From Acetofilamentum sp. (lineage in GTDB: Bacteria > Bacteroidota > Bacteroidia > Bacteroidales > JAADGE01): 40,014 nt of DNA. Below, one piece after another: positions 1,673 to 26,159 of the stretch (positions are counted from its first letter, which is position 1; every line of letters begins with the position of its first letter). The translations under genes were made by a program, and so were the position numbers. The stretch is taken from contig DYOJ01000001.1 in assembly GCA_020720705.1 (NCBI GenBank), positions 1-40,014 of the forward strand, given 5' to 3'. The notes beneath the pieces are model-generated. The model searched no databases. It was not told where the DNA came from and saw only the letters and a program-made list of their open reading frames with translations.

Positions 1673-1689
1673 ACATGTCTTATTTTCAG

Positions 1690-2658
1690 TTATTTACAAT
1701 ACAATTTAATGGTTTGAATTGCTTGTTTTAAGCCAAGTTTTTCGGCATTATTCCAATAAATGCACGCTGAATCTTGTTTTCCCTGCGCATACATGATAAG
1801 ACCTTTGTTGTAATGCACCACCGGTAATTTCGCATCTAATTTTAAGGCTCTGTTGTAGTCTCGCAGTGCTGCATCAATGTTGCCGTTCGATTGTCGGGCT
1901 ATTCCTCTGTTTCGATATGCAAATGCTAAATCGGGGTCTTCAATAATCGCTTTTGTGTAAAAGAAAATTGCCTCATCATTTTTGTTAAGAGCCTGTAATT
2001 GAGCACCTTTATTCAGGTAAAAATTTGCGGTATCTTCAGTTAAAATAACACTGAAACGGAACTCGGTCTCGGGCAAGGTTTTCCGGATTTCGCTGTGTTT
2101 CAGTATCGGAATCGGATTTCGATATAAACGCACCAATTTCAATGCTTTGAGATTAAAAAATGTATTTGGGAGGCTTTGGATGTCGTTCCACGCCAGATTT
2201 AAGTCCTGTAAATTTTGCAAATTTCCGATAGTTTCGGGCAAATTTCGAAGTAGGGAGTGTGCAATATTCAAGTGCGTAAGCGAAGTGAGTTGTGTCAAAA
2301 CCACCGGAAAAGTATCCAAGGGATTTGAGGCTAACGAAAGATGTTCCAAGTTCTTAAGTTTCAAAATATCATCGGGTATGCTATTTATTTGATTTCGAGA
2401 GAGATTCAACGATTTCAGATTGACCAATCGGAATATTTCCGGCGGAATTGAAGTGAACTTATTTCCGGAAAGATTCAAAGTTTCAATGTCAGTTAAATTT
2501 GTAAAATCATCGGGCAAGGCATCCAAATTCTGATAGGATAAATCCAAATTGTGCACATTTTCAGGTTCATCTAAAGCCTCTTCGAGTGTATCTGCAGGTT
2601 TGCACGAAACCCAAAACAGTATCAAAACAAACGCACTTCTTAAAAAAAACAGTTTCAT
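1690..2658 (-). CDS. leucine-rich-repeat (7 x 23 aa) + TPR lipoprotein
   Basis: The ORF runs to 2706, but I prefer the ATG at 2658. That start gives a classic lipoprotein signal, MKLFFLRSAFVLILFWVSC, and an exact -7 box (TACTTTTG, minus strand, 2674-2681) sits inside the longer version. Seven consecutive 23-aa LxxLxLxxNxLxxLPxxIxxLxx repeats (about 2074-2556) are followed by TPR-like repeats (AIFFYTKAIIEDPDLAFAYRNRGIA..., ALRDYNRALKLD...; about 1690-2034). Confidence 0.8.
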   Translation of the reverse strand: MKLFFLRSAFVLILFWVSCKPADTLEEALDEPENVHNLDLSYQNLDALPDDFTNLTDIETLNLSGNKFTSIPPEIFRLVNLKSLNLSRNQINSIPDDILKLKNLEHLSLASNPLDTFPVVLTQLTSLTHLNIAHSLLRNLPETIGNLQNLQDLNLAWNDIQSLPNTFFNLKALKLVRLYRNPIPILKHSEIRKTLPETEFRFSVILTEDTANFYLNKGAQLQALNKNDEAIFFYTKAIIEDPDLAFAYRNRGIARQSNGNIDAALRDYNRALKLDAKLPVVHYNKGLIMYAQGKQDSACIYWNNAEKLGLKQAIQTIKLYCK

Positions 2659-2673
2659 CTCATTTTTTTCAGC

Positions 2674-2681
2674 CAAAAGTA
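2674..2681 (-). promoter_or_regulatory. candidate Bacteroidota -7 box (TACTTTTG) for the LRR/membrane-protein operon
   Basis: Exact TAnnTTTG match on the minus strand, 16 bp upstream of the ATG at 2658. A TTTG (CAAA on plus, 2704-2707) lies 22 bp further upstream. Confidence 0.4.
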
Positions 2682-2739
2682 AAAAAACTTCTTTACTTTG
2701 TGTCAAAATTTTGTAAAATTTAAAAAAATTTAAAAAAAT

Positions 2740-3024
2740 ATGAACGTCTATTTCCTTTTTTATTTATTTGCGGTAAATATAATATCGGCACTCATTTTTA
2801 TATCCGACAAACGGAAAGCACAAAAAAAACTCAGGCGAATTCCTGAAAAAACGCTACACATTTTTGAACTTTTAGGCGGAGTGTTCAGCATCCTGCCTCT
2901 GATGTATTTTATCCGGCATAAGAACAGGAAATTTTCATACTATTGGTTCACATGGCTTATGATATTGCTATGGACAGGCGGGATTACTTATTACATTTTG
3001 AATGGAAACTTCGTTAGATTTTAG
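2740..3024 (+). CDS. DUF1294 family small membrane protein
   Basis: 94-aa ORF with the characteristic DKRKAxxxxxRIPEKTL...GG......FRHKxxKxxF pattern (SDKRKAQKKLRRIPEKTLHIFELLGGVFSILPLMYFIRHKNRKFSY) and flanking TM segments. Confidence 0.8.
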   Translation: MNVYFLFYLFAVNIISALIFISDKRKAQKKLRRIPEKTLHIFELLGGVFSILPLMYFIRHKNRKFSYYWFTWLMILLWTGGITYYILNGNFVRF

Positions 3025-3131
3025 CATTTAGACGATTTACATTAGAACTAAATCACTTAATTTCAACAAGTTACACTAAGATAAAAAAAAGTTGCGATTA
3101 TCGGAATATATCTAACGTGAGGTGTTTCGTG

Positions 3132-4010
3132 CTATAAATAATTTTCGATATTCTCGTCGGTTTTTAAACCCATTTTAGTGCGTAATCGAAATCGTGTCAT
3201 CTCAACGGCTCTGACTGTTTGTCCGGTAATTGCCGAAATTTCTTTGGTTGTGTGTTTAAGTTTAAGCATTGCTGCCATTTTTAATTCTGATTTTGTTAAA
3301 TCGGGATATTTTTGCAACATTTTAGTAAAAAAGTTTGGATTTACTTTTTCAAAAGAAATAAATAGTTCTTCCCATTTTTCATTCAAATTTAAACATTCAA
3401 TATTTTTAAATACTTCATCTATAAAAGGTTTACATAGATGATTATTTGTGCAATGCGGAATTTTGGTTAATGTGTCATAAATATTTTTTAATAGTTCGTT
3501 GTATTTATTCATTAATAAAATTCGGTTGTTCAATTCAGTATTTATTAATTCAATTTTTTCTTCGTGAAATTTTTTTTCATTTTCAAAGAAGGATTCTTTT
3601 TTGGTTATAAAATGCTTATATGACTCAGTAAATCTGAGCATTGCATTAATTCTGCCTATTAATTCAAATTCGACGACAGGTTTTCTGATATAATCAATTG
3701 CTCCGGATTCATAAGCTAATAATAAATCTTCCGAACTTTTCATCATTCCGGTGCAGATTATTACAGGGATACAGGCAGTTTCGGAATTGTTTTTTAATTT
3801 TTTAATCAGTTCAATACCTGAAATATTCGGCATATCCCAGTCACTTATAATTAAGTCCGGAATTTCATTTTTAATAATTTTAAGGGCAGATTCTGCATTA
3901 AAAGCGTTCAGAATTTCATATTTATTAGTTGATTTTAATAATATTTGATTGATTACAAAAATAGCTTCTGCATCATCGTCAATTACCAAAATCTTATAAA
4001 TTTTTTCCAT
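3132..4010 (-). CDS. response regulator: receiver domain, coiled-coil linker, LuxR/GerE-type HTH
   Basis: N-terminal REC motifs (KILVIDDD..., DLIISDWDMPNISGIELIKKLK, PVIICTG...AIDYIRKP). The C-terminal LTKSELKMAAMLKLKHTTKEISAITGQTVRAVEMTRFRLRTKMGL looks like a LuxR-type HTH. Its start is 1 nt after the stop of the upstream kinase gene. Confidence 0.9.
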   Translation of the reverse strand: MEKIYKILVIDDDAEAIFVINQILLKSTNKYEILNAFNAESALKIIKNEIPDLIISDWDMPNISGIELIKKLKNNSETACIPVIICTGMMKSSEDLLLAYESGAIDYIRKPVVEFELIGRINAMLRFTESYKHFITKKESFFENEKKFHEEKIELINTELNNRILLMNKYNELLKNIYDTLTKIPHCTNNHLCKPFIDEVFKNIECLNLNEKWEELFISFEKVNPNFFTKMLQKYPDLTKSELKMAAMLKLKHTTKEISAITGQTVRAVEMTRFRLRTKMGLKTDENIENYL

Positions 4011-4011
4011 T

Positions 4012-6402
4012 TTAAGTCCTTAAATTACTGATAATTTTTTGAAATTTCTCGTCATTTCCCTTCGCAACTGTTTCTAAAATTTCGGAACACAAACTTATGA
4101 GTATTTCTGAATGATTTTCGGTTTTTATTTTTTCGATAACCGAGTTTATTGCTGAAATTTTATAAATCGGAATCTCAGAAAGTTCCTTGATATAAGGTTG
4201 AATTGCATTTTTTTCACTTTCAGATAAATTTATAGCCGAACTTTTATTTTCAATTTTTTCTAATTCCTGAACTTCAAAATTTTCTGCTTTTGGTAAACTG
4301 AATGTGAATGTGGTTTTGTTTTTTTCTGATGAAACTTTAATTATTTTACCATGACTTTCGATAGCTAATTTGCAGAAAGACAAGCCCAAACCGGAGGAGT
4401 ATTTTTTTGCATTTTTGCCAACTTGTGTAAATTTATCGAAAATTTTGTCGAGATATTCCGGCGGAATTTCTTCTCCTTGGTTTGTGATAGAAAATAATAT
4501 TTCATCTTGATAATCAGCAACCTCAATTTTAATTTCCGAATTTGAAGGTGAATATTTTACAGCATTTGTGAATAGATTTATCAAAACACGGTTAATGACA
4601 TTAATATCACACTTTACACTTATTTTTTCGTCCAAATTATTCACAATTTGTATGTTTGTGTTTTGAGCTAATGTATTAATTTCTTTTAAAGATGTTTCTA
4701 TCAAATTCAAAACCGGTACACTCTCAAAATTCAAATTAATTCTTGATTTTTCGTATTTGTAAACATCAAGTATATTTTGTATCAGATTTAGCATTGAGTA
4801 TGATATTGTTTCTACTTTTTCAATTTGTCTGTCGGTAGCATATAATCTGATATTTTGTAATATGTTTAGTGGATTTTTCAAGTCGTGGATTATCATCTGC
4901 ATCATCCCTTCTTTAAAATTTGATAGTTCTACAAGTTTATCATTTATTTGACGCAATTCTTCTGATTGTTGCAAAATTTCTTCGTTTTTTTCCGATAATT
5001 TTGCAATAAACTTTTTCATTATCCGACTGTTGCGAATAATTAAAACAATTAAAATTCCGGCAAGGAGCAAAATTGCAATAACCGAAAATATTAATATTCG
5101 CTGATTACTAATTGTTTTCTTCTTGATTTCTGCATCTTTTTCCAAAACCAAATTCTCGGTTTTCAGATATTTTGTATCGAAAACAGTTTGCAACGAATCT
5201 AACGAAACACTGCGTTCTGCTTGATTTATTGAATCTTTCAAAAAATCGTATTTTTCGTAATAATCAAGTGCTACGCCGGAATTATTAAGCTTTTTATTAG
5301 TTTTTATCAATGCTTGGTATGATTTTAATATTTCGGGATAACTCTCTATTTCAATGAAAATTAGATGTGCTTTCAGATAGTATTCCAAAGAAACAGAATA
5401 ATTTTTTTTATAAAAATACGCTTCGCCGATATTATGATTTGCAGTGGCAGCAATATACTTAATTCCAATTTCTTCTGCAAGAGCTGCAGTTTTTTTCAGA
5501 TATTCAATTGCTTTGTCATATTGTTTTTGTTCAATGAAAAGTAAACCAATGTTTGTATTAACAGCTGCTTCAACCTGTTTACTTGGCTGTTTTAAAAGAT
5601 ATTCAAGTGCTTGCTTATACTTTTCTTCTGCTTTTTGATATTCTGCTTTTTTCTTATACATAACCCCCATTGCGTTACAAAATCTTGCGGCATCAGTATA
5701 ATTTTCATTTTTTACACATTCGTTTTGTGCTTTTGAGAGGTATTTTTCTGCATCTTCATATTTCTCTTCTTCTACCAAAAGTCCACCTATTTTACCGTAA
5801 AGCGAAATCAAACTCGATTGTTCGTTTAATTCTGTAAATAATTCTTCTGCCAGTAAATAGTTTTCCAAAGCTGTTTTAAAATTTCCTTTTAACTGATATA
5901 CAAGACCTATGTTTGTATAACAAGATGCCAAATCTTTTTTAGTACCCGATTTAATTTGAATTTCTTTTTCTTTTTCGAATGAAATTAACGAAGAATCGTA
6001 ATTTGACTGTACCTGATATATACAACCCAAATATCTGTAACTTACAGCTTTTTGTTCAATGTTTTCAAATTTTTCCGAAAATTGAATTGCTAAATTTGAG
6101 TTTGATTTACAACTTTCGTATTCTGCTCTATAATAATTTAACAGTGCAAATGAATTATAAATTTTGCTGTTCAACTCGGATATTTTTAGTTCTTCAGATA
6201 ATTTTAACGCTTCATTAGTGTACTCGTAACTTTTTTCTAAATCTATTTTAAGATGTTTTGATGATAATTCGAGTAAAGTTTCAATTTTTTCTTTACCGTT
6301 TTGTGTTCTAACAACATTAAGCAAACTATCAATTGCTTGATTTTGCGAAAAAGAAAAATAATTTATTGATAAAAATAATATTACGAGAATTAGTTTTTTC
6401 AT
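4012..6402 (-). CDS. TPR-repeat sensor histidine kinase (extracytoplasmic TPR array, 1 TM, HisKA + HATPase_c, roughly 100-aa C-terminal extension)
   Basis: Signal peptide (MKKLILVILFLSINYFSFSQ), about 400 aa of TPR-like repeats, a TM (ILIFSVIAILLLAGILIVLII) and a coiled coil. H-box MIIHDLKNPLN, N-box LINLFTNAVKYSP, G-box SSGLGLSFCK. A helical tail of unknown function follows. Confidence 0.9.
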   Translation of the reverse strand: MKKLILVILFLSINYFSFSQNQAIDSLLNVVRTQNGKEKIETLLELSSKHLKIDLEKSYEYTNEALKLSEELKISELNSKIYNSFALLNYYRAEYESCKSNSNLAIQFSEKFENIEQKAVSYRYLGCIYQVQSNYDSSLISFEKEKEIQIKSGTKKDLASCYTNIGLVYQLKGNFKTALENYLLAEELFTELNEQSSLISLYGKIGGLLVEEEKYEDAEKYLSKAQNECVKNENYTDAARFCNAMGVMYKKKAEYQKAEEKYKQALEYLLKQPSKQVEAAVNTNIGLLFIEQKQYDKAIEYLKKTAALAEEIGIKYIAATANHNIGEAYFYKKNYSVSLEYYLKAHLIFIEIESYPEILKSYQALIKTNKKLNNSGVALDYYEKYDFLKDSINQAERSVSLDSLQTVFDTKYLKTENLVLEKDAEIKKKTISNQRILIFSVIAILLLAGILIVLIIRNSRIMKKFIAKLSEKNEEILQQSEELRQINDKLVELSNFKEGMMQMIIHDLKNPLNILQNIRLYATDRQIEKVETISYSMLNLIQNILDVYKYEKSRINLNFESVPVLNLIETSLKEINTLAQNTNIQIVNNLDEKISVKCDINVINRVLINLFTNAVKYSPSNSEIKIEVADYQDEILFSITNQGEEIPPEYLDKIFDKFTQVGKNAKKYSSGLGLSFCKLAIESHGKIIKVSSEKNKTTFTFSLPKAENFEVQELEKIENKSSAINLSESEKNAIQPYIKELSEIPIYKISAINSVIEKIKTENHSEILISLCSEILETVAKGNDEKFQKIISNLRT

Positions 6403-6417
6403 TTCTGATTTTTATAA

Positions 6418-6425
6418 CAAATATA
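6418..6425 (-). promoter_or_regulatory. candidate -7 box (TATATTTG) for the kinase/regulator operon
   Basis: Exact TAnnTTTG on the minus strand, 16 bp upstream of the kinase ATG (6402). A second match (TAATTTTG, 6431-6438) is nearby, so the assignment is ambiguous. Confidence 0.3.
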
Positions 6426-6484
6426 TCCCCCAAAATTAAAAAAATAAATCAAATATCCACTTTTTTTATTAGTCTTTTTTCAAA

Positions 6485-6528
6485 TTGTGAAAGTTTTGTG
6501 AGGTAGTTGTGAAAGTTTTGTGTAGGTA
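6485..6528. repeat. two tandem 22-bp direct repeats (16-nt core TTGTGAAAGTTTTGTG) in the divergent intergenic region; candidate regulator-binding site
   Basis: 6485-6500 and 6507-6522 are identical 16-mers. The spacers are AGGTAG and TAGGTA. The pair ends 3 bp before a TTTG (6532-6535) / TAACTTTG (6558-6565) promoter-like pair that faces the giant gene. Confidence 0.6.
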
Positions 6529-6531
6529 TAT

Positions 6532-6565
6532 TTTGATTACAGGTGATTTATGTATTGTAACTTTG
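6532..6565 (+). promoter_or_regulatory. candidate promoter of the giant gene (-33 TTTG, -7 TAACTTTG)
   Basis: Exact TAnnTTTG at 6558-6565 with a TTTG 22 bp upstream. This implies a leader of roughly 195 nt before the ATG at 6769. Confidence 0.35.
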
Positions 6566-6768
6566 CAAATATGGAATAATTATATTTTTTCAATAATAAT
6601 AAATTACCCGAATATGCTTAAACATCTGTTAATCAGCAGGCTGAAAACAATTTCTGCACAAGAAATTCCAAGACAATCAGTGTTGAGATTTCATTTTTTT
6701 GGGTTAAATCACTCAAAATTTATTAAGTCAAATAAAATAATTTTAAATATTAATTAAAAATTCAAAAC

Positions 6769-18700: not shown

Positions 18701-19686
18701 ATTCAGAAATGTATATGATGAAACTTGCGAGTTCTAATACACTTGTTTACAACGGTGCAAAATTAAATCCGGAAGAAATTGAAATTCCAATAAACACAGG
18801 TTGGAACTGGATTGGATTTACGCCTAACGGAAATATGTATTTGAACGATGCTTTTGCATATTATCAATCTGCTCAAAACGATATAGTTAAAAGTCAATAC
18901 CAATTTGCAATGTATGATAATAATTTGGGTTGGATAGGAAGTTTAACCTATTTAGTTCCCGGATTTGGTTATATGTATAAAACTTCAAATCCGACAAATG
19001 TATTTACGTATCCAAACTCAGGATACGATAAAGGAACAATTATCGGAAAAGGCTACGAACCTGTTTACGGAACGCCTTGGACATTAAAAGAAGCAGAATA
19101 TCAAAACAATATGTCGTTAATTGCAACAATCAATACTCCTCCTGATTTTAATATTTCAGAAAATAATGTTATTGGAGTTTTTGCCGGAAATATTTGTTGT
19201 GGTATAGCTAAACCTTTGATTGTTAATTCCGAAAATTTATATTTTGTAACTATTTATGGGAATGCTAACGAAAATTTAACATTCAAATTAATTGATTTAT
19301 CCGATAATGTAATTTATGATATTACCGAAAATTTGAGTTTTTCAATTAATAAAGTTACCGGAACAATAGAAAATCCTTTTGAGTTAAATATTATCGGAAT
19401 AACATCAGATATTAACGAAAACTCAAATTTTGACTTTTCTGTTACAACATATCCTAATCCATTCGATAAATTTATTTCAATAAGTTACAATTTACCAAAT
19501 TCAGAAATTGTAAAAATTGAATTATTTAATGTTTTAGGAAGTAAGATTTCTGATTTGTTTAACGAATATCAAAACTCAGGTTCAAATAATTTAGAATTTG
19601 ACGGAAGCAGTTTAAGTTCAGGTTTTTATTTGTTGAAAATAAAATCAGGTGATTTTATTCAAACAGTAAATATTGTTAAAAAATAA
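6769..19686 (+). CDS. giant (4305 aa) secreted multidomain protein: FN3-like x3, LamG/ConA-like x7, six-bladed NHL propeller, CarboxypepD_reg-like domains, unassigned roughly 1000-aa centre, Ig-like domain, repeated C-terminal modules, T9SS C-terminal sorting domain
   Basis: Uninterrupted 12.9-kb ORF. Signal peptide ends ...NSNAYAQ. FN3-like domains at about 6895-7730 and 10180-10450. Seven LamG-type modules open with xLxFDG(x)DY and close with Gx(I/M/L)DE(F/V/L)x(I/L)W: GNIDEFRIW, GKIDEISIW, GAIDEVHVW, GSMDEFGFY, GNLDELRLW, GYVHELRIW, GLIDEFRLW. They lie at about 7741-8400, 9505-10173, 10471-11085, 11128-11635, 12187-12696, 16378-16895 and 16981-17547. Six NHL-like blades (GQPDFT...N.RVLRF) at about 8475-9497. 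Ig-like domain at about 17903-18150. T9SS sorting domain (TTYPNPFDKFISISY...GFYLLKIKSGDFIQTVNIVKK) at about 19432-19683. Confidence 0.95.
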   Translation: MENLVHLQRKKLPAESRGFKWFYRTLFAVLLALVINSNAYAQPYCSSLYPTNFSSTGFYVNYSISGAFYNYYVDVYSNSSYSTKVWGGISSSQSGYFNVTGLAPGTQYWIRSAIEYSDGSVKIIYCSDFTTQTLLNPPVALEPIDVTSNSFTARWNYSTNATSYELQISTDPGFTTSVFNQNVGNTDRRSVTGLNPGTTYYYRVRAINSLRTSELSNVISSVFCYDINVTSQTVENNAFTINWENPVGANLDNYILTVSENSDLGNPLSGYNNISIGNVNTFTVNQGIDMNTNYYYQISGQETGTVIAKSPIKNIYTKTYETARNALAFDGTDDYVTLPAINLNSTNFTIEGWVKWKDLKNNSRIFDFGSGAGSNNIFLCNTTTSNQLEFNIYNGATGQALTVSNIIPLNSWVHIAAVASGGTMYLYVNGILVGTKTGVTIPNVNRTLCFMGKSNWGSDAYFKGNIDEFRIWNVARSQKEIRQTMERTLTGTETDLLAYYDFNTGNPSGTNTALTTLLDYSFSSNNGTLNNFALTGTTSNWIASEAVNYPKQEVFSPFASFTNGQMAEFVAGQPDFTTGTSGVTSQKLNGPLGITIDAVHGKMYVADFINSRVLRFPYPLTGNFPTADLVFGQPDFTSNSVDNGGLSASCFHNPENVALDANYNLWVTDMGNGRILRFSNPWSISSNKPSADLVIGAANFTTDGNLTQTYQILFDDAGNLWAANAGRDVVYRFNAANLVSGNATPDGFLGVVNSSNCTQNSWDNGEGICMIGTSLFVSDWLNNRVLRFDNAANKANSANADAVLGQTDFTSNTFGCNQSKFHTLSSMTSDGSGTLYVTDYNNHRVMIFKNAVNLTNGAKASGVLGHPDFTSASSSTTQSGMNGPRGIFYDKIYNKLLVTESLNQRVLQFGFSDNALAFDGANDYIAVTDMSFNGSSQISISAWVNITNFSNYGTIFAKIDATDHGELFFRISNNGKPHFAVCTNVAGVWPSVYGTTVLTPGEWYYITGTYDGTQLKMYVNGNLENTVNHSGTIVSSGAAATKIGTLSSGGLPFHGKIDEISIWTKPLNEAEIQSAMKSPLNGTESGLRVYYNFNNGIAGGTNTGLTILNDITQNGNNGTLNTFALTGSNSNWVESRAGMRPEFVAASGLANSIIVKIKCGGNPDTYLLTVSEDALLRTPITGYNRRNMGNGTEVTITGLDKNTTYYFDVWAVKNGQISPNMGINSKATQLYTTQGSALSFDGTDDYVDCGTGTSLNMTSAFTLEAWINPNHLNYHTIISKGNAAGTEGYTFYIWNGQFYLTLHNKSGYGCTVSGLKANEWQHVAVVWDGNNKAKFYRNGVFIQEVTAVATAGIISSPASTFKIGEDYCGSNTFNGAIDEVHVWNTARSNKEIRQYMERELTGTETGLMAYYNFNEETGTTAENLTVNNLDGTLTNGVLRVESSAPLKPYPIQKDFMLTFDGYNDYVQVAPAGDDRLLTQTFTASFWVKPDATQLSGVNIVNANATTANNWRITQDAANTNQYVFQTYENGSYNATTSFALPADEWSFVVVTRNGTNKEKKVYVNGVLKITKNGTHDITFSSQGLWLGVNPNNLGTTNWKGSMDEFGFYNKVLSLNEIKALYMSHQMYDGNCQSIYLPFDEDAGITSRDYSANDYPAVLVNGVKNKPSETPIELGQTVPGDLVISKGYYNTKVQVSWNVAQSYRNIINKWYIYRKVYGSEQATALVYSSSDFANFFSYDDNSCNAGVLYEYQIIGETDFGGCLIYTNPISSIGYRTPTGVVNGKVTYAGGIAVEGVKIVATRTQGAVGKSLAFAGNSTFTVAHKNLLMPQNEITCEIYVRPTSLSSDFDLIEKENAYGMYYSNADNSVKFRIKNEAEQIFTVSYENVLKLDTFVQISGTYDGTNIRLYANGIPSETVPATGKLFSSTENIIVGQNFTGNLDELRLWDYGKDSLQVNTDYFRILTGGEEGCIGYWRMDLGVSDWDFDQSNVDATFNGNNADLVNTTWATTIPSNDQLGLCGITNETGNYTISNIGYKGSGETFNLTPMFGVHQFDPNQLGVYIGDGAIVLNNQNFTDISSFTVKGNVIYKDTYFPVEGAYLYIDEQIVVRANGTPVSTDQFGNYEIQVPIGYHNISVAMQGHTFEIGRYPETGNYNFQQPINGINFVDNSLIKVVGKVAGGPIQAEKPIALGKTVNNLGNGVITITTQKGYDLTDNTAGVNILSDNEIYRDNVITSVGQTAYVINNLSPKQINIYPDENTGEFVVYLLPEKYLVTAVTAGNYIFDESHYITMDLTQAGYITETESDSTTILDETYFDVVQYNKNYDFIYRETPDITVTDKYGEPIFWETELQIDDETSVPIVDEFGNLKTLYPVFKQRKQYLTKISVFEEYYNVDKDQTDIVPVNDGKVEIQNFLAIDKEKNEYELNENGNVFYSFWGGLPNIAQGGIGDYVLTFNVTSKTGQNQAIATTWEPNGEIFKGYVLGGMPSGSNFVTNGPQKLITILRDPPGTGSTCTLEQGQSVTNSTSSEFSFNSEIGQNLNVDLGSRIVTWAGFGAGVITETEVVAEFEQGTTITNSYTGSNSNSTTYEATQSWSTSDSPDFVGADGDVFVGHATNIVYGVSTQVAVAPITQENASNWVGNTFEHNGVTYDIGITKGIRVNPEFGTMFMYSQYHIENYLIPNLKMVRNLVMQNNPDIYQCVICDTENPEYGRRNRTGNDVWNGRVGGDSYNVAIPADWNYSITFVDSVEYFNKQIYDWEYFLMLNEMEKVKSVLIENVSFDGGTTYEKSITNSSSEETTHEYEFGLDITLAGEVGFEIMGMGSKMKIETKTSFGTKYGETEETENSTSYSYTLADGDAGDYLSVDVRTPYQSTSTSTGPVFLTKGGQTSCPFEDAYVTKYYQPGTVLQPATMQREKPQMTVENAIVSNVSADMPALFNFQLSNISETEEDAWMLLTVDETSNQNGALIEMDGSPITNGRIVMLPAGQTINKTIGVSMVNPTIYDYENIRLVLSSMCDGNVSTDVAISAYFQPVCTRVVLDNPINQWVVNTNTDTTLNIKIKDYNLSNNLFDRLLVQYKPASTSVWATDMIYYVDEDEYNTANEPKMFINNQPTLNYLLDLSSMQDRNYDVRITSTCVDNTTNSSIVASGIKDVKRPMVFGTPQPGSGILNPGDDIMLTFDEPINAGALLPYNFSVRGVLNGNEIKHQACVFFNGTNGYASVLSGVNLDNKSWTIEFWAKRGTLEQGVIFAQDGLEIGFDADNKFYLKAGNQLITSQNEYTDTELWFHYAVTYNQQAEEFNMYVNDVIERTNILQTSTFTANGKMVLGKDLSDANYFNGYVHELRIWEKLQGFSTIYAQMYQELSGSEIGLSGYWTMNEAKGEMAQDKARNRHATLFGAEWRVFPTGFAREFDGPASVELNTTTTVIFPEMNFTLEFYFNAEPQTNTVLFSNGKGDGTDETPFQNIWVIGFDGNGKLYAKNNGVTILISEKNYTDNTWYHFALAVNRNANASIYIDGEMVGSAQASNFGGLSAAGATLGARRFYQFPNLTYDQHFTGLIDEFRLWELLRTSKQLELDLSSKLKGDEMGLLLYFPFDKYNSLGIDLIPTLEDITGNSVDAIATNGSETNINVPNLKDARPVQDVAFDWVVNEDKIIINLNEPAALIEKCILEFTVERVEDLRENRIASPVTWTAYIKQNTVVWDETEINIEKEVYEPYTFTTKILNMGGTNQTYSITGLPTWLSCSAVSGSLSPDSEKTLTFTVDPVVNVGEYALSLFLTSDFGYSEKLNVNVNVFEPAPDWTVNSSDFQYSMSVIGQLKIDGSFSANKNDKIAAFVNGQCRGVAQNLYIEGYDKFIVFLTIFSNTDVGENVSFKIWNASEGYVHTNVTPEISFVYNEIIGTVTEPQIIETYNSYSINQNLNSGWTWMSFNLDNADLSDVNLIMENINAQTGDQIKSQTLFANYSTNLGWDGSLVFGEGFNNSEMYMMKLASSNTLVYNGAKLNPEEIEIPINTGWNWIGFTPNGNMYLNDAFAYYQSAQNDIVKSQYQFAMYDNNLGWIGSLTYLVPGFGYMYKTSNPTNVFTYPNSGYDKGTIIGKGYEPVYGTPWTLKEAEYQNNMSLIATINTPPDFNISENNVIGVFAGNICCGIAKPLIVNSENLYFVTIYGNANENLTFKLIDLSDNVIYDITENLSFSINKVTGTIENPFELNIIGITSDINENSNFDFSVTTYPNPFDKFISISYNLPNSEIVKIELFNVLGSKISDLFNEYQNSGSNNLEFDGSSLSSGFYLLKIKSGDFIQTVNIVKK

Positions 19687-19698
19687 ATTCATTATTCA

Positions 19699-19733
19699 AA
19701 ACCTTGTAAGGTTTCAATAACCTTACAAGGTTT
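19699..19733 (+). terminator. 15-bp stem hairpin between the giant gene and its paralog (terminator/attenuator, or alternatively a pair of palindromic operators)
   Basis: AAACCTTGTAAGGTT (19699-19713), loop TCAAT, AACCTTACAAGGTTT (19719-19733). It starts 13 bp after the stop codon. Only a short T-run follows. Confidence 0.5.
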
Positions 19734-19763
19734 ACTATCAAAAATTTTATAAATTTTATAAAA

Positions 19764-20684
19764 ATGAAAAAGTTAAAATACATTTTACTGTTTAATTTGC
19801 TTTTAATTACAGTTTTATTAAAAGCAGAAATACCGGATTGGTCGGTAAATCCACAAGACTATTCATACAGCATGACAATTACCGGAGTTTTATCTATTGA
19901 ATATACAGAAACAACAAGTTCTAACGATTTGGTTGCCGCATTTGTTGGTAACGAGTGTCGAGGTGTTGCAACCGGTTATTATAATTCAGCTGTAGAAAGA
20001 TATGTTTTTTATCTGATGGTTTACAGTAATAATTCAAACGACGTTCTTGAATTTAAAGCATATAATTCTATAACCGATGAGGAAATTCTTTTAATCAATT
20101 CCGAAAATTTTCAAATAAATTCAGTAATCGGAAATGCCGAAACACCTTATATTTTTACAAATCAAGAATTAAGCGATGCCGCAGAAATGTTAAGTTTTGA
20201 AATTGACGGACAAATCAACAGTACTATTTCCGGAACTACCATTGATGTAGAGATGCCTCAGGGCGCAAATGTATCAAATTTAGTTTCGTCATTTACTTTG
20301 TCAGAATATGCGAATGCATATATCGGAATAACACTTCAGGAAAGCGGTCTGACTTCAAATGACTTTACTAATCAAGTAAACTATGTAGTGCATGCTCAAA
20401 ACGGAGATATTCAAAACTATACAATTACTGTAACTCTTCCTACACAAATTAGTGAAATTAAAAATGATAGGATTTCAGTTTATCCAAATCCGGCTAATGA
20501 TTTTATCCACATCAGCACTTCGGAGAAAATTAAAAATGTTAGAGTTGTATGTATTACTGGACAAACGGTTATTGAAACAAATAAAGCTTTGATAGATGTG
20601 TCAAAATTAATAAACGGAACCTACATTCTGGTAATAAAAACAGACAATAATATTTATTCAAAAAGTGTTTTGGTTAATAATTAA
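19764..20684 (+). CDS. secreted T9SS-sorted protein, paralog of the giant protein's C-terminal module
   Basis: Signal peptide MKKLKYILLFNLLLITVLLKA. Residues about 23-133 (nt 19833-20163; PDWSVNPQDYSYSMTITGVL...NDLVAAFVGNECRGVA...) align with giant-protein segments at 18148-18490 and 19070-19395. A middle Ig-like segment (LSFEIDG...YTITVTL) follows. C-terminal T9SS domain (ISVYPNPANDFIHIS...GTYILVIKTDNNIYSKSVLVNN) at about 20470-20681. Confidence 0.9.
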   Translation: MKKLKYILLFNLLLITVLLKAEIPDWSVNPQDYSYSMTITGVLSIEYTETTSSNDLVAAFVGNECRGVATGYYNSAVERYVFYLMVYSNNSNDVLEFKAYNSITDEEILLINSENFQINSVIGNAETPYIFTNQELSDAAEMLSFEIDGQINSTISGTTIDVEMPQGANVSNLVSSFTLSEYANAYIGITLQESGLTSNDFTNQVNYVVHAQNGDIQNYTITVTLPTQISEIKNDRISVYPNPANDFIHISTSEKIKNVRVVCITGQTVIETNKALIDVSKLINGTYILVIKTDNNIYSKSVLVNN

Positions 20685-20718: not shown

Positions 20719-20807
20719 TACCTAAAATTACATTTATGCTCTGAATACAGCCGTTACAACCACATGTATTTGAAAAAATATCCTGAAAGATTATGACAAA
20801 ATTGACT

Positions 20808-20824
20808 TAGTTTTGCTAAATTTG
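20808..20824 (+). promoter_or_regulatory. two overlapping candidate -7 boxes (TAGTTTTG, TAAATTTG) for the dehydratase gene
   Basis: Exact TAnnTTTG matches at 20808-20815 and 20817-20824, which is 27-43 bp upstream of the ATG at 20851. They overlap the alternative GTG start at 20824, which argues for the ATG. Confidence 0.35.
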
Positions 20825-20850
20825 TGCCCAAATCCATAATCAGAATTGAT

Positions 20851-22659
20851 ATGACAATTATTGAAAAAATTATTGCGACACACTCAAAATATGAGTCCGT
20901 GAAGCCGGGCGAAATTGTAGATGTCGAACTTGATGTACGCGCTGCCAGAGATTTTGGCGGTCCGAACGTTGTTAAACATCTCAAAGAAAACAATTTAGGC
21001 ATAGCAGATGTTTCTAAAACCTTTTTCACCTTCGACACAAATCCGACCGGGTCAGACCAAAAATATGCTGTAAATCAGCACTTATGCAGAACTTTTGCCA
21101 GAGATTTGGGGATAAGAGTTTTCGATATCGACCATGGTATCGGCACACACAGTTTGATTGAAGAAGGGCTTGCTTATCCGGGCAGTACTGCCGTTACAAC
21201 CGATTCGCACGCCAACATTCTGGGTGCAGTCGGTGCATTCGGGCAAGGTATGGGCGACCAAGATATCGCCGTTGCATTTAACAAAGGTAAAGTGTGGTTT
21301 AAAGTTCCGGAATCGGTAAAAATAACACTGCACGGAAAACGACCGAACGGAATATCAGCAAAAGACATGGTGTTGAATTTGCTAAACAAGTTCGGGGCAA
21401 ACAGTTTACTGGGTTACTCTGCCGAACTATACGGCGAATGTGTGGACGAACTGACTTTGGATGAGCGCATTACAATAGCCTCGATGGGAACGGAAATGGG
21501 CGTAATCATTTTATTATTCCCGCCGAATCAAGCAGTTCTTGAATACTGTTCGACACGAGCCGGACGAGAAATTGAAGGCGTATTTGCCGATGCCGATGCA
21601 GTATATGCCCAAACGTTTGATTTAGATGTTTCAACATTTAAAACCATGGTATCCATGCCGGGCAAGCCGCATGATACCGTTGATATTGCCACTCAAAAGA
21701 AACAAAAAATAGATTCGGCATTTATCGGCTCATGCACCAACGGACGTATTGAAGATATGAGAGAAGTTGCGAAGATACTGAAAGGCAAACATGTAGCTCC
21801 GGGTGTGGTGTTAAAAATTGTGCCTTCAACCGATGCCGTCTGGCAACAATGCTTAGACGAAGGCTTAGTCAGAATTTTCAAAGCCTCAGGGACACTGCTC
21901 TCGAACGCCGGATGTGCGGGTTGTGCGGCAGGGCAAGTCGGGCAAAACGGTCCGGGCGAGATTACCATCAGCACGGGCAACCGCAATTTTCCCGGCAAAC
22001 AAGGCAAGGGCAGCGTGTATTTGGCATCGCCCGCAACGGTTGCAGCTTCTGCGATTGCAGGCTATATCACTACATTTGACGACATCCCGAACGAACCGGC
22101 AGTATTTAAACCGTCTGAAAATCTAATCAAAAAAATGGCGGAAGCGCACAATGTTGAACATACGGCGGCTAATAAACCCGTTGAAATTGAAGGACGAATC
22201 TGGGTGATTAACGAAGACAACATAGATACAGATATGATTTTTCACAACAGATATTTAGCAATCACAAATCTTGCCGAAATGGGACAATATACGTTCGACA
22301 ATTTAGCCGGGTACGAAAATTTTGCAAAACAAGCTAAAGCCGGAGATATTGTTATGGTAGGTAAAAACTTTGGCAGCGGCAGTTCGCGGCAGCAAGCTGT
22401 AGATTGTTTTATATCGCTTGGTATTCAGGCTGTTATGGCAGAATCTTACGGCGCTATTTACGAACGAAATGCAATCAATGCTGCCTTCCCGATAGTTACA
22501 TACAAATCCTTGGAAAGCATTGAAATACAAGACGGTGATATGATTCGTGTAAATTTTGAGACCGGAAAAATTACGAATTTAAAAAACGGTAAATCAGCAT
22601 TTGCAGAACCTTTTTCTGATGTTCAGTTAGAAATTTATACCAACGGAGGATTGTTTTAA
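20851..22659 (+). CDS. aconitase-family dehydratase, fused LeuC-like (large) and LeuD-like (small/swivel) domains; 3-isopropylmalate or homoaconitate dehydratase type
   Basis: Begins MTIIEKIIATHS..VKPGEIVDVELD, like type-2 LeuC/HacA. Putative 4Fe-4S cysteine ligands are in IGSCTNGRIEDM and NAGCAGCAAGQ. The C-terminal roughly 170 aa (GRIWVINEDNIDTDMIFHNRYL...GKNFGSGSSRQQAV) looks like a LeuD-type swivel domain. The ORF track starts at GTG 20824; I prefer ATG 20851. Confidence 0.85.
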   Translation: MTIIEKIIATHSKYESVKPGEIVDVELDVRAARDFGGPNVVKHLKENNLGIADVSKTFFTFDTNPTGSDQKYAVNQHLCRTFARDLGIRVFDIDHGIGTHSLIEEGLAYPGSTAVTTDSHANILGAVGAFGQGMGDQDIAVAFNKGKVWFKVPESVKITLHGKRPNGISAKDMVLNLLNKFGANSLLGYSAELYGECVDELTLDERITIASMGTEMGVIILLFPPNQAVLEYCSTRAGREIEGVFADADAVYAQTFDLDVSTFKTMVSMPGKPHDTVDIATQKKQKIDSAFIGSCTNGRIEDMREVAKILKGKHVAPGVVLKIVPSTDAVWQQCLDEGLVRIFKASGTLLSNAGCAGCAAGQVGQNGPGEITISTGNRNFPGKQGKGSVYLASPATVAASAIAGYITTFDDIPNEPAVFKPSENLIKKMAEAHNVEHTAANKPVEIEGRIWVINEDNIDTDMIFHNRYLAITNLAEMGQYTFDNLAGYENFAKQAKAGDIVMVGKNFGSGSSRQQAVDCFISLGIQAVMAESYGAIYERNAINAAFPIVTYKSLESIEIQDGDMIRVNFETGKITNLKNGKSAFAEPFSDVQLEIYTNGGLF

Positions 22660-22753: not shown

Positions 22754-23119
22754 TTAGTTTAGCATAATTTTTTGGATTTCGGCATTTTTATCTTCGTAAA
22801 TAATCCGAATCATGTAAAGCCCCTTGTCACATTCCGGCATCGAAACCAAAATATTGTAGGGCAAACCGGTTTCATTATTTATTTTGCTTATCGTCTGCCC
22901 TATCATGTTGATAACTTCAACTGAGCTGATAATTTTTTCTGATTTCACGTAAAACCGACTGTCTGTTACCGGGTTCGGATAGATAACCGCAGGCTCCGAA
23001 TGTGCGGGCAACTTATAAACGGTTTCCGAATCGTATTCGTAATTTTGGGCTTGAGCCGCTTGGGCGATAAAAAATACCGCAAAAATAATGATGCTGATAA
23101 AATGTATAAGGCGTTTCAT
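22754..23119 (-). CDS. small secreted protein made almost entirely of a signal peptide plus a T9SS C-terminal sorting domain
   Basis: 121 aa. Signal peptide MKRLIHFISIIIFAVFFIAQAAQA, about 20 linker residues, then a CTD-like sequence (VIYPNPVTDSRFYVKS...VEVINMIGQTI...GLYMIRIIYEDKNAEIQKIMLN). Confidence 0.8.
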   Translation of the reverse strand: MKRLIHFISIIIFAVFFIAQAAQAQNYEYDSETVYKLPAHSEPAVIYPNPVTDSRFYVKSEKIISSVEVINMIGQTISKINNETGLPYNILVSMPECDKGLYMIRIIYEDKNAEIQKIMLN

Positions 23120-24191: not shown

Positions 24192-26159
24192 CTATTTCCG
24201 CAGAATTATTTTCTCGGCTACTCGTGCCTTTCCTTCGCCATGTGAGACAAAATATATCCCTGTTGGAAACTCACCCAAGTCCGTTTCTATTTTAGATTCA
24301 TCATTTGTGGGGATTCGTTTCAGGATTTTTCCGGTCATATCTGTAACAAAAATTTCTTCCAAATCTTTAAGACCTTTAATCGTTATCGGTCCGGCGGTCG
24401 GGTTCGGGAAAATCGAGAACTTAGCCTCAGTAACTTCGGGACCGAACGCATCGTTCAAAGTGTATTCGTCTTCGCGCTTTTCATTTTCTTTATTATCAGG
24501 CTCATCTGCGGTAACACATTCGGGCAGATACAGATATTGGTCGAGCAGACGGATGAGTAGTTTATTCATAGATTCGACATCAAATTTATCGGTTGTCGGT
24601 TTGATATGCCCGCCGCCGACGCCGCTGTCATCTGTCAGGAAAACATAAGTTCCGTTGGTTGCGAGTGCTAATGAGCGCATAAGGTATTCGGTGCTTTTAT
24701 CGGTGCCGCTGCCCGTAATCGGGACAATTCTGATACCTTTTGAGGCTGCTTTACGAGCTAATTTTTGCATTTTGGCAACCGAGGCTTCATCATTGTGCGG
24801 CGGAGCATCTAAAACAAGAAACAAAATACGTGAGCGCGCTTCCGGACGCCATTCTAATCGGTCAATGGCTTCTTCCAAACCGGCATCCACAGCTTCGGGA
24901 AAGTCGCCGCCTCCGCCTGCTGATTGAGCTTTGATAAACTCAATGGTTTTTGAAGCATCTTCGGTAAATGCACTTGGCAGAGTCAGATATGAATCAGTAT
25001 GGTCGCGGTAAAAAACAGATGCCGTAAGCAAATTGATGTCTGTATATTTTTTTTCTAAACGTTCAATAATATCGCTCATTTCTGCTTTCAGATAAAAGAT
25101 TTCATCCCCCATCGAGCCGGTTGCATCTACCACAAAAGCAATATCAACATTTTCCTGAAATCCGCAAGCTGTCTCCATGCTTACAAAATTTATCCCTTTT
25201 TGAAATTCTCTCGGATTATGAACAAAGGCTGTTTTACCTTGATATTCAACACGCAATTCAAATTCGGGCAATGCTTTTTCTTCATAGTTGGTCATATTTA
25301 CCCAAAGTTCGGCTTTGCCGGTGTTGTCGGTTTTAGCTGCCCAGAGTGTATCTCCGAAATTTGAAAGCAAATATACAGAGGCATCGGTCAACCCTTGTTG
25401 ATTATTGTTTGTAACTTGCACACAATAACGATGTTGAGGTTTCATTCGCCAAGTGCTTATAAAACTTTGCAGATTAGAAGAATCAATATCTTTCCAAAGT
25501 TTCCATTTCATAAAATCGTTCACTTCGCCTGCGGTAAGTAGTCCTGCTTTTGCGTCATCGCCCGCCGTGCTTTCAGACGAAACAGGGATATCTTTTGGTT
25601 TTTCCTTCTTGGACGACTCTTTATCCAATCCGGAGGCATCGTCATAAACAGGCAATCCGGAACGACTACCTGACAGTGCGCGTCCGCTGCCTTTACTTGT
25701 GCGTCTGTCTTTTGTCTCCGATTTATCACCTAACGAGCGTGTTCCGAAAAAGGCTTCGCTGTGCTCCTCTTCAGAATCACCGTCTGCTGTTTCAGATGCA
25801 TATCCTATTTTTTTTTCGTCTATAGTAACACCGATTGCCGTAACAACCACTGAATCTAATACTTCTTTGCTGTCCTCCATAACGATACGAACATACTCGA
25901 GTTCTCCGATAACAATTTCCTGAGATTCGAGACCGATAAACTGCACTATCAGAATCGGATTTTCGATGGTTGCCGGAAACGTAATACTAAATTTGCCATC
26001 CGCATCGGTAAGTGTAGCAATTGCTGTATTTTTTATAGAAACAGTTGCTCCGGGTATGGGAGAATCTAAGGAATCTACAACCAGACCGGTGATGGTTTTG
26101 TCAGGTGAGCCAAATGTGAGGCTAACCAAAATGCTGAGATATAAAAAAAATGTATTCAT
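24192..26159 (-). CDS. vWA-domain T9SS-sorted protein with a CarboxypepD_reg-like N-terminus
   Basis: 655 aa. Signal peptide, then a CarboxypepD_reg-like beta-sandwich (ITGLVVDSLDSPIPGATVSIKNT...TDADGKFSI). A low-complexity D/E/S/K linker follows. vWA domain with a MIDAS-like DATGS motif (VDIAFVVDATGSMGDE; about 24615-25148). C-terminal T9SS domain (FSIFPNPTAGPITIKG...GIYFVSHGEGKARVAEKIILRK). Confidence 0.85.
   Translation of the reverse strand: MNTFFLYLSILVSLTFGSPDKTITGLVVDSLDSPIPGATVSIKNTAIATLTDADGKFSITFPATIENPILIVQFIGLESQEIVIGELEYVRIVMEDSKEVLDSVVVTAIGVTIDEKKIGYASETADGDSEEEHSEAFFGTRSLGDKSETKDRRTSKGSGRALSGSRSGLPVYDDASGLDKESSKKEKPKDIPVSSESTAGDDAKAGLLTAGEVNDFMKWKLWKDIDSSNLQSFISTWRMKPQHRYCVQVTNNNQQGLTDASVYLLSNFGDTLWAAKTDNTGKAELWVNMTNYEEKALPEFELRVEYQGKTAFVHNPREFQKGINFVSMETACGFQENVDIAFVVDATGSMGDEIFYLKAEMSDIIERLEKKYTDINLLTASVFYRDHTDSYLTLPSAFTEDASKTIEFIKAQSAGGGGDFPEAVDAGLEEAIDRLEWRPEARSRILFLVLDAPPHNDEASVAKMQKLARKAASKGIRIVPITGSGTDKSTEYLMRSLALATNGTYVFLTDDSGVGGGHIKPTTDKFDVESMNKLLIRLLDQYLYLPECVTADEPDNKENEKREDEYTLNDAFGPEVTEAKFSIFPNPTAGPITIKGLKDLEEIFVTDMTGKILKRIPTNDESKIETDLGEFPTGIYFVSHGEGKARVAEKIILRK

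Follow-up and report, generated by a model that had tools for sequence, protein, structure and literature searches.

A divergent two-component system with a putative phased operator array beside a giant type IX secretion cargo and its module-sharing partner in a marine member of the Bacteroidota

Layout of the locus

We examined positions 1 to 40,014 of contig DYOJ01000001.1 (assembly GCA_020720705.1; this whole stretch is hereafter the window) from Acetofilamentum sp., an uncultured marine bacterium of the Bacteroidota, with attention to a four-gene locus in its first half. There, a response regulator (RR) gene and a histidine kinase (HK) gene lie on one strand and diverge from a giant gene whose product is a type IX secretion system (T9SS) cargo. 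A small gene follows the giant on its strand, and the two products share a domain of ~110 aa that we call module X (Table 1). The original prediction for this DNA had described a kinase/regulator operon divergent from the giant over 366 bp, and a 77-bp gap with a strong hairpin before a 306-aa gene; the open reading frame (ORF) listing returns the same coordinates throughout. The contig was also found as JGI 3300000234, as metagenome-assembled genome (MAG) GCA_974332225.1, and as a Logan assembly, at 99.7 to 100% identity to the window. Other loci in the comparison carry L numbers.

Kinase and response regulator

Both signaling proteins look functional as judged from their domains and residues. 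The RR scored 78.8 bits for Response_reg in a Pfam scan, and residues D11, D12, D57, T87, and K110 are invariant in an alignment with its orthologs, so the catalytic residues of the receiver appear intact and the protein competent. It had been described as a LuxR regulator, a label that stands for its ortholog in L013 (35% identical over its full length), where the helix-turn-helix (HTH) scored 28.0 bits for GerE (E 1.7e-6, cut-off 23.5), but that the window HTH does not earn by itself (13.5 bits, E 0.056). The length of the RR and its long linker are also atypical of NarL/FixJ (LuxR-type) regulators. The HK joins a periplasmic tetratricopeptide repeat (TPR) array to a histidine kinase core. 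Its best NCBIfam match was Porphyromonas gingivalis FimS (NF053520) at 139.4 bits, and we rejected it as a FimS ortholog against the equivalog cut-off of 600 bits.

In the JGI copy (L001 7610-9999, corresponding to window 4012-6402 at 99.7% identity), the kinase appears as two separate ORFs, 485 and 294 aa long, reflecting either a population frameshift or an assembly error. It is intact in both the window and the MAG copy.

Predicted operator array and promoter facing the giant

The intergenic region between the kinase and the giant contains two perfect copies of a 16-mer, TTGTGAAAGTTTTGTG, at 6485-6500 and 6507-6522. The original prediction had singled out these repeats, with their 22-bp periodicity and their position ahead of a promoter facing the giant, and this description was confirmed. 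The two 16-mers resolve into four TGTG units in direct orientation. When the intergenic region was shuffled 5000 times, the longest perfect repeat obtained was 13 nt, and one of at least 16 nt never arose. The spacing TGTG-N7-TGTG is also absent from the rest of the 40-kb window on both strands. The array is a predicted site for two RR dimers.

Downstream of the array, toward the giant, lies a perfect match to TAnnTTTG, which is reportedly the Bacteroidota −7 consensus of Bayley et al. (2000) and Chen et al. (2007), and this box begins at +39, counted from where the last operator unit starts. The promoter had been read as a −33/−7-like element; the promoter-like box is indeed present, but the TTTG that had been seen is part of the −7 box itself. 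Another TTTG is a possible −33 element (Table 1). Consensus spacing between the two elements in Bacteroidota is 19 to 21 nt, so the −33 element is imperfect. Many promoters beside related regulators have no −33 match, as expected if these promoters are activator-dependent. A sigma-70 promoter scan was uninformative for Bacteroidota promoters. Transcription would start near 6572, leaving a leader that holds a basic 47-aa ORF (6614-6757); the reality of this ORF is doubtful, and a gene caller annotates a 47-aa ORF in L002.

Array geometry across relatives of the regulator

With the RR as query, species genomes and metagenomes yielded ~30 full-length relatives at 30 to 39% identity, nearly all of which sit after a TPR kinase on the same strand. 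Twenty-nine had enough downstream DNA, and 14 of these carry phased TTGTTAACC-like pairs no more than 800 nt past the RR stop codon. Every such pair is on the RR strand and none is on the opposite one, against a background of 0.02 pairs per kb. Other RR subfamilies show variant units (TGTACCC, TGTAGTGG, and TGTAAT). When 12 arrays, including that of the window, were anchored on their last unit, T[AT]nn[TA]TTG followed in all 12, starting at +39 in nine, +38 in two, and +37 in one; the frequency of this motif is 0.0034 per position. L042, L057, L114 (with three arrays), and L117 obey the same geometry. In all, at least 16 promoters beside RR relatives have a phased array at a fixed distance from the −7 box, each facing a neighboring cargo gene. 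Relative to the target gene, the units also keep their orientation: the relatives' array faces the gene after the RR, and the window array faces the giant.

L117, which contains the closest RR with a readable neighborhood (51% identity in the C-terminal half), shares the divergent arrangement of the window. There, units TGTGAGGT, TGTAGAGT, and TGTGAAAG are followed by TAGATTTG at +39, and the array points toward a 51-aa ORF, behind which come a type B T9SS cargo of 1619 aa and a PorP/OmpA gene.

The recognition helix of the RR co-varies with the type of operator unit. Most relatives combine the helix (D/E)SVKV(S/A)RSRLRKK with unit TGTTAACC, while the window and L117 combine RAVEM(T/A)R(F/Y)RLRTK with TGTGAAAG or TGTGAGGT. 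In L046, L058, and L060, NSVNVxFSRIRxK accompanies TGTAAT, and in L035, KSIEVARTRLRQK accompanies TGTAGTGG. This is the pattern expected of a regulator that reads the units. Together, the conserved geometry, the L117 layout, and the co-variation of helix and unit support the earlier suggestion that the repeats mediate control of the adjacent giant gene, with the regulation itself inferred. Genes behind promoters of this family typically encode secreted proteins, many of them large and many with T9SS sorting domains (Table 1).

The array could instead be mainly an autoregulatory operator of the kinase/regulator operon, with the giant a mere neighbor under unrelated control. Because the array ends only 83 nt upstream of the kinase start codon, it could regulate that operon as well as, or instead of, the giant. 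Two-component systems often autoregulate, a TAnnTTTG match (TATATTTG, 6425-6418) lies upstream of the kinase on the minus strand, and in L117, extra TGTGAAA(G/T) pairs lie closer to the kinase. Three orthologs of the giant also have no such kinase/regulator pair. However, the relatives carry the array downstream of their RR gene and pointing at the gene that follows, a position from which it cannot serve as promoter for their kinase/regulator operon. Moreover, in the window, unit orientation and the +39 spacing are kept on the strand of the giant, and the minus strand has no −7 box at the equivalent offset. We therefore regard this reading as unlikely, and autoregulation and control of the giant are in any case not mutually exclusive.

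Several observations accompany these arrays. At nine loci of the RR family, the first ORF after the promoter encodes an acidic helical peptide of 43 to 58 aa ahead of a large cargo gene, with the pattern ..E..I.E..QN.AL.KIL.K.. (Table 1). At L112 1-767, upstream of a partner-giant pair, ~18 TTG repeats begin with ATG, and this tract could be a slipped-strand phase-variation tract. Three copies of TGTTAATCC in L112 resemble the operator unit; we rejected them as an operator because the +39 geometry is missing.

The giant protein

The giant falls into a variable head, a conserved core, and a cell-proximal end with two copies of module X and a type A sorting domain. At least seven Laminin_G_3 (LamG) domains, fibronectin type III (FN3), NHL/SGL, and Por_Secre_tail domains all scored above their cut-offs, in agreement with the earlier reading of a T9SS-exported protein with lectin-like and propeller modules. 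The sorting domain reached 41 to 45 bits for PF18962 (cut-off 27) and 47.5 bits for TIGR04183 (cut-off 23). An internal-repeat comparison aligned aa 3800-3975 with aa 4100-4275.

From aa ~1674 to 4305, the giant is collinear at 30 to 34% identity with its counterparts in L004, L006, and L112 (in L112 as far as aa 4265), and the partial giant of L008 is collinear over aa 3017-4305 at the same identity. The head is not collinear with its orthologs, whose N-terminal thirds differ. A search with 681 residues of the core (aa 2380-3060) found 1650 representative clusters (50% identity representatives) at E ≤ 1e-3, of which 788 reached E ≤ 1e-30. Most of these proteins are 2700 to 3300 aa long; where named at all, they come from Bacteroidota and Chlorobiota MAGs and are called only "hypothetical" or "T9SS type A sorting domain-containing." The core had no match in Pfam or NCBIfam, and sequence and profile searches of the PDB gave LamG-type matches only. 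An AlphaFold2 (AF2) model of aa 2380-3060 had a predicted local distance difference test score (pLDDT) of 62.6, and Foldseek searches of PDB and BFVD with this low-confidence model returned only generic beta-sandwich matches (TM-score ≤ 0.16).

These results also bear on whether the giant could be a secreted toxin or pore-forming effector acting on other cells rather than a surface adhesin, with the small protein as an accessory or immunity-like factor. The core has a weak CEL_III_C match (aa 2783-2910, E 6e-5), the giant also gave Toxin_R_bind_N matches, the core shows strong conservation with many invariant polar motifs, and its AF2 model has very long beta-hairpins with low-confidence Ser/Thr-rich tips. 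However, the CEL_III_C match (PF18054) reached 18.3 bits on the whole protein and 23.7 on the segment against a cut-off of 27, and the Toxin_R_bind_N matches sit on LamG-type jelly-rolls. Neither the Foldseek nor the PDB searches described above produced a pore-former or toxin. Given the sub-threshold match and the generic structural hits, we dropped the CEL-III-like pore-former reading of the core as a positive claim. The possibly membrane-inserting module of the original prediction likewise has no support, as this match was its sole basis, nor has the proposed effector role. An immunity role also suits the small protein poorly because it has its own signal peptide and T9SS sorting domain. 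A toxin thus seems quite unlikely.

The module-X partner

The small gene encodes a secreted protein made of module X, an Ig-like beta-sandwich, and a type A sorting domain (PF18962 44.5 bits, TIGR04183 36.1 bits). In BLASTP, residues 24-148 matched giant residues 3796-3929 at 34% identity (E 5e-18), and the second X copy of the giant matched at E 3e-5. The small protein had been said to share the giant's C-terminal module and T9SS signal; it does share both, but in the small protein the module is N-terminal. Its AF2 model (pLDDT 85.5) shows three beta-sandwich domains, namely module X, the Ig-like domain, and the sorting domain, preceded by an N-terminal helix at residues 2-17. Foldseek matches were generic Ig-like strings, topped by fragments of Aureispira GhpA (TM-score 0.2 to 0.28).

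Module X is kept in all orthologs of the giant, and a module-X gene adjoins the giant in eight lineages. Homologs of the partner at 29 to 43% identity border directly on the giant, on its downstream side in L004/L005, L006/L007, and L008 and on its upstream side in L112. In L115, the partner has 409 aa (signal peptide, X, Ig-like, and type B sorting domain), and in L114, it is a cadherin-repeat protein of 2187 aa that matches the small protein at 42% identity over the first 235 of these residues; PorP/SprF follows in both. A 325-aa protein with two BACON domains and X lies between two giants in L116. No partner was seen in L009 and L010, where one flank is missing. A tblastn search with module X across L001 to L116 and the window matched only giants and their neighbors, and none of the ~100 loci retrieved via RR relatives contained it.

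Alternatively, this adjacency could be meaningless, with module X no more than a shuffled beta-sandwich frequent among T9SS cargo and the 306-aa protein an independent surface protein. In favor of this, tandem copies of the module are found in unrelated proteins, among them one from Marinimicrobia; the partners do not agree in their C-terminal parts, which hold a type A sorting domain, cadherin repeats with a type B domain, or BACON; and the hairpin suggests separate transcription units. Against it, a module-X gene is the immediate neighbor of giants that are only 30 to 58% identical in those eight lineages, with the order flipped in L112, and is absent from the RR-derived loci. We consider meaningless adjacency very unlikely.

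The hairpin between the two genes has a fold energy of −23.6 kcal/mol (z −6.7). It has no U-tract and is thus not a canonical terminator, nor did a terminator scan flag it; it may act as a partial terminator or 3′ stabilizer. Strong, perfect hairpins of unrelated sequence also lie just past the giant stop codon in L008 (~3944-4033), L114 (~18238-18268), L115 (~17499-17527), and L116 (~20804-20836). Their occurrence was tied to giant-partner gaps of more than 100 bp, although the gap in the window is 77 bp, and none was found in L004, L006, and L112, where the gaps are 12 to 35 bp. Such recurrence is suggestive of a conserved function, be it termination, processing, or stabilization of the mRNA.

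Phage-tail-collar proteins (PF07484) of ~290 to 320 aa are encoded directly upstream of giant orthologs in two lineages, and a third collar gene, in L114, lies further upstream, ahead of the kinase (Table 1). These proteins may be a further recurrent companion of the giants. The window has no collar gene.

Linkage of the kinase/regulator pair to giants

Outside the window, a kinase/regulator pair of this type stands beside a giant ortholog in L114 and not in L011, L115, or L116. In L114, a TPR kinase and an RR (35% identical) come first, then three operator arrays and small ORFs, and after these a Collar-domain protein, the giant of 2724 aa, a module-X protein, and PorP. The linkage of the pair to giants is facultative, not universal. 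Because it is present at the L114 giant and absent from the other three, the most fitting description of the pair is a local, portable switch for T9SS cargo, with the giant and its partner as one possible payload.

In L116 (2205-9785 and 20896-30779), one giant is preceded by SpoIIE (PP2C) sensors with TPR and Y_Y_Y/Reg_prop domains in place of a two-component system. A module-X protein with two BACON domains follows this giant, and then the second giant.

Flanking genes and composition

The G+C fraction is 0.27 to 0.30 over the kinase/regulator genes and intergenic region (window 3001-7000), 0.32 to 0.40 in the giant, and 0.36 to 0.47 in flanking housekeeping genes such as the aconitase gene (20824-22659). 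Because the value for the kinase/regulator region lies below those of the giant and the flanks, the cassette may be a compositionally distinct insertion.

On the 3′ side of the RR gene are a small DUF1294 ORF of opposite orientation (annotated in the MAG copy alone), a protein with leucine-rich repeats (LRR) and TPR, and a 535-aa protein without family match; the latter two genes are found in all three contig copies. The region between the RR and the LRR/TPR gene (2707-3131) holds no second operator and only the DUF1294 ORF on the other strand, and an operator scan of the whole window at up to three mismatches gave chance-level matches only. Further along the window lie a 121-aa ORF consisting of little more than a T9SS sorting domain, a 655-aa protein that combines CarboxypepD_reg and VWA with such a sorting domain, and a 1540-aa secreted-protein ORF without Pfam match. 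With their T9SS sorting domains, the first two suggest that the source organism uses T9SS.

Table 1. Features of the locus and of related loci. Coordinates refer to the window unless an L number is given.
Feature	Nucleotides	Strand	Residues or size	Detail
Response regulator gene	3132-4010	−	292 aa	ORF listing
RR receiver (REC) domain			aa 7-121	Phospho-acceptor D57
RR helical linker			~110 aa	Between REC and HTH
RR LuxR/GerE-like HTH	3165-3299		aa 238-282	Divergent
Histidine kinase gene	4012-6402	−	796 aa	ORF listing
HK signal/first transmembrane segment (TM1)				N-terminal
HK periplasmic TPR array			aa ~20-430 (~410 aa)	TPR_12, 95 bits
HK second transmembrane segment (TM2)	5035-5097		aa 436-456
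HK H-box	4867-4887		aa 506	HDLKNPL
HK HATPase_c			aa 600-706	80.7 bits
HK-giant intergenic region	6403-6768		366 bp	Between divergent genes
Operator array	6486..6526	+		Four direct 8-nt units, 11-bp phase
Operator units	6486, 6497, 6508, 6519	+		TGTGAAAG, TGTGAGGT, TGTGAAAG, TGTGTAGG
Possible −33 TTTG	6532-6535	+		Spacer to −7 box 22 nt
−7 box	6558..6565	+		TAACTTTG, perfect TAnnTTTG
Putative 5′ leader of giant mRNA	6572..6768	+	~197 nt
Giant gene	6769-19686	+	4305 aa	T9SS cargo
Giant signal peptide			aa 1-41	...FKWFYRTLFAVLLALVINSNAYA/Q, read directly from sequence
Giant head, variable	6769..11787	+	aa 1-1673
Giant FN3-like domains			aa 45-320	Three
Giant head LamG_3 domains			aa 330-481, 919-1073, 1226-1400, 1460-1618	Segment Pfam scans
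Giant NHL/SGL beta-propeller			aa ~500-900
Giant FN3 domain			aa ~1150-1220
Giant conserved core	11788..18153	+	aa ~1674-3795
Giant core LamG domains			aa 1815-1950, 3211-3346, 3442-3570
Giant core region without family match			aa ~2150-3200	Motifs ILRDPPG, GDVFxG, SCP
Giant cell-proximal end	18154..19686	+
Module X copy 1	18154-18498		aa 3796-3910
Module X copy 2	19078-19380		aa 4104-4204
Giant type A T9SS sorting domain	19450-19683		aa 4228-4305
Hairpin	19699..19733	+		Perfect 15-bp stem, 5-nt loop, 13 nt past giant stop codon
Giant-to-small-gene gap			77 bp
Small gene (module-X partner)	19764-20684	+	306 aa
Partner signal peptide			aa 1-21	MKKLKYILLFNLLLITVLLKA/E, read directly from sequence
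Partner module X	19833-20159		aa 24-132
Partner Ig-like beta-sandwich			aa ~135-225
Partner type A T9SS sorting domain	20478-20669		aa 239-302
535-aa protein	65-1672	−	535 aa	No family match
LRR+TPR protein	1690-2706	−
DUF1294 ORF	~2740-3024	+		MAG copy only
Sorting-domain ORF	22754-23119	−	121 aa
CarboxypepD_reg/VWA protein	24192-26159	−	655 aa	T9SS sorting domain
Secreted-protein ORF	34062-38684	+	1540 aa	No Pfam match
Collar gene, L011	7891-8856			43-bp gap to giant
Collar gene, L114	9034-9978			22-bp gap to giant
Third collar gene, L114	1882-2751			Ahead of kinase
Acidic small ORF, L013	11064-11228
Acidic small ORF, L037	2174-2338
Acidic small ORF, L038	10989-11165
Acidic small ORF, L039	1461-1610
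Acidic small ORF, L050	1598-1729
Acidic small ORF, L053	1539-1712
Acidic small ORF, L056	5507-5680
Acidic small ORF, L114	8585-8731
Acidic small ORF, L117	6951-7106	−
Downstream cargo, L013			≥1487 aa
Downstream cargo, L037			≥1077 aa
Downstream cargo, L043			387 + 598 aa
Downstream cargo, L055			556 + 489 aa
Downstream cargo, L056			1172 aa
Downstream cargo, L117			1619 aa

Proposed mechanism

We propose, with moderate confidence, that the locus is a self-contained cassette for a locally switched T9SS giant surface protein and its module-X partner, and we describe its action as a five-step model built on sequence features. The periplasmic TPR domain of the HK would sense a ligand, and the HK would phosphorylate the RR at D57. 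Phosphorylated RR, probably as two dimers, would then bind the four repeats at 6486-6526, about −95 to −44 relative to the putative transcription start. Bound there, it would activate the Bacteroidota-type promoter in a class-I-like manner toward the giant, the −7 box lying 39 nt from the start of the last repeat. The giant would be exported by Sec and then, through its type A C-terminal domain, by T9SS to the cell surface, where the lineage-variable FN3/LamG/NHL head would point outward for ligand binding, and the ~2600-aa conserved core with its two X copies would be cell-proximal. The partner would be exported likewise and may cooperate with the giant by way of module X, whether it co-assembles as a base or adaptor or both proteins bind one anchor, and the hairpin between the genes probably tunes their relative expression.

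Several points weigh against this model. The adhesin role and the interaction between X modules are drawn from domain content and gene adjacency only, and the giants of L011, L115, and L116 have no such kinase/regulator pair within 4 to 10 kb upstream. At the promoter, the −33 element has a longer spacer than the consensus, the array lies close to the kinase start codon, and the window HTH matches GerE weakly. The window leader also has no acidic small ORF, its basic 47-aa ORF failing to align with that family, and the hairpin does not look like a terminator. Lastly, the source contig is known solely from metagenomes and one MAG.

A bolder interpretation is that the giant and an obligate module-X partner form an unrecognized two-protein appendage found across Bacteroidota and the wider Fibrobacteres-Chlorobi-Bacteroidetes (FCB) group, with a conserved core of ~1000 to 1500 aa and of new fold that is active beyond adhesion and with the TPR-kinase/regulator family, its phased operator, and its acidic leader ORF as the general switch. 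The core might then oligomerize into a fiber, insert its long beta-hairpins into a target, or self-process. We consider this extension speculative and improbable.

Comparison with known systems

Taken singly, the parts of the locus are familiar, as it combines a two-component system with T9SS cargo and beta-sandwich repeats. In its regulatory logic it resembles FimS/FimR, in which a TPR sensor kinase and its cognate regulator act on a surface-appendage gene cluster in response to an unknown signal (PMC11053733). The window pair is likewise a Bacteroidota periplasmic-TPR kinase with a regulator. However, FimS/FimR controls type V fimbriae, whereas the predicted target here is a T9SS cargo; we found no description of a phased four-unit operator with fixed −7 geometry for FimR, and the window RR differs in its long linker and divergent LuxR-like HTH.

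The array itself resembles the pho box of the OmpR/PhoB family, where phosphorylated PhoB binds head-to-tail to tandem direct repeats of 11 bp, with 22 bp per dimer site. The window repeats are also phased at 11 bp and lie directly upstream of a core promoter. Unlike PhoB, which is a winged-helix protein, the window regulator has a LuxR/GerE-like HTH, and it is paired with a Bacteroidota −33/−7 promoter and an unrelated operator sequence. PorX/PorY is another Bacteroidota two-component system tied to T9SS, but PorX has a PglZ-type effector domain and regulates genes for the secretion machinery. By contrast, the window system has an HTH regulator with a local operator and apparently controls individual cargo genes.

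Among surface proteins, SprB/SprF of Flavobacterium johnsoniae and GhpA/GhpB/GhpC of Aureispira combine giant T9SS proteins of 5000 to 6500 aa, made of beta-sandwich repeats, with a small dedicated partner gene (10.1101/2024.01.29.577165). The likeness extends to the GhpA fragments that topped the Foldseek matches of the partner, and to the PorP/SprF genes after the type B module-X partners of L114 and L115. However, both window proteins are type A, and the window partner is a secreted beta-sandwich paralog rather than an outer-membrane barrel. No PorP/SprF or PorE gene was found near the window giant, with no PorP_SprF match among the window ORFs scanned, and no sequence homology was found between these systems and the giant core. 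Membership in the GhpA grappling-hook system was rejected, as the structural likeness is only that of a generic Ig-like string and the gene context differs. We found no description of the operator, the RR family, the giant core, or module X in Pfam-A, NCBIfam, or the literature searched, whose coverage was incomplete.

Significance

T9SS cargo proteins are the main tools with which Bacteroidota attach to particles, algae, hosts, and prey, and the regulation of individual cargo genes is poorly understood. The regulator family described here is widespread in uncultured Bacteroidota and offers a candidate predictive rule: a TPR-kinase/regulator pair, phased repeats whose last unit starts 39 nt before the −7 box, and units that vary with the recognition helix. 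Should this rule hold, one could read regulons straight off the genomes of many uncultured lineages. The giants represent a very large uncharacterized family of surface proteins of ~3000 to 4400 aa, which share a conserved core and nearly always have an adjacent partner with which they share one module. The locus is thus a starting point for structural and genetic work on the giant surface proteins of oceanic bacteria.

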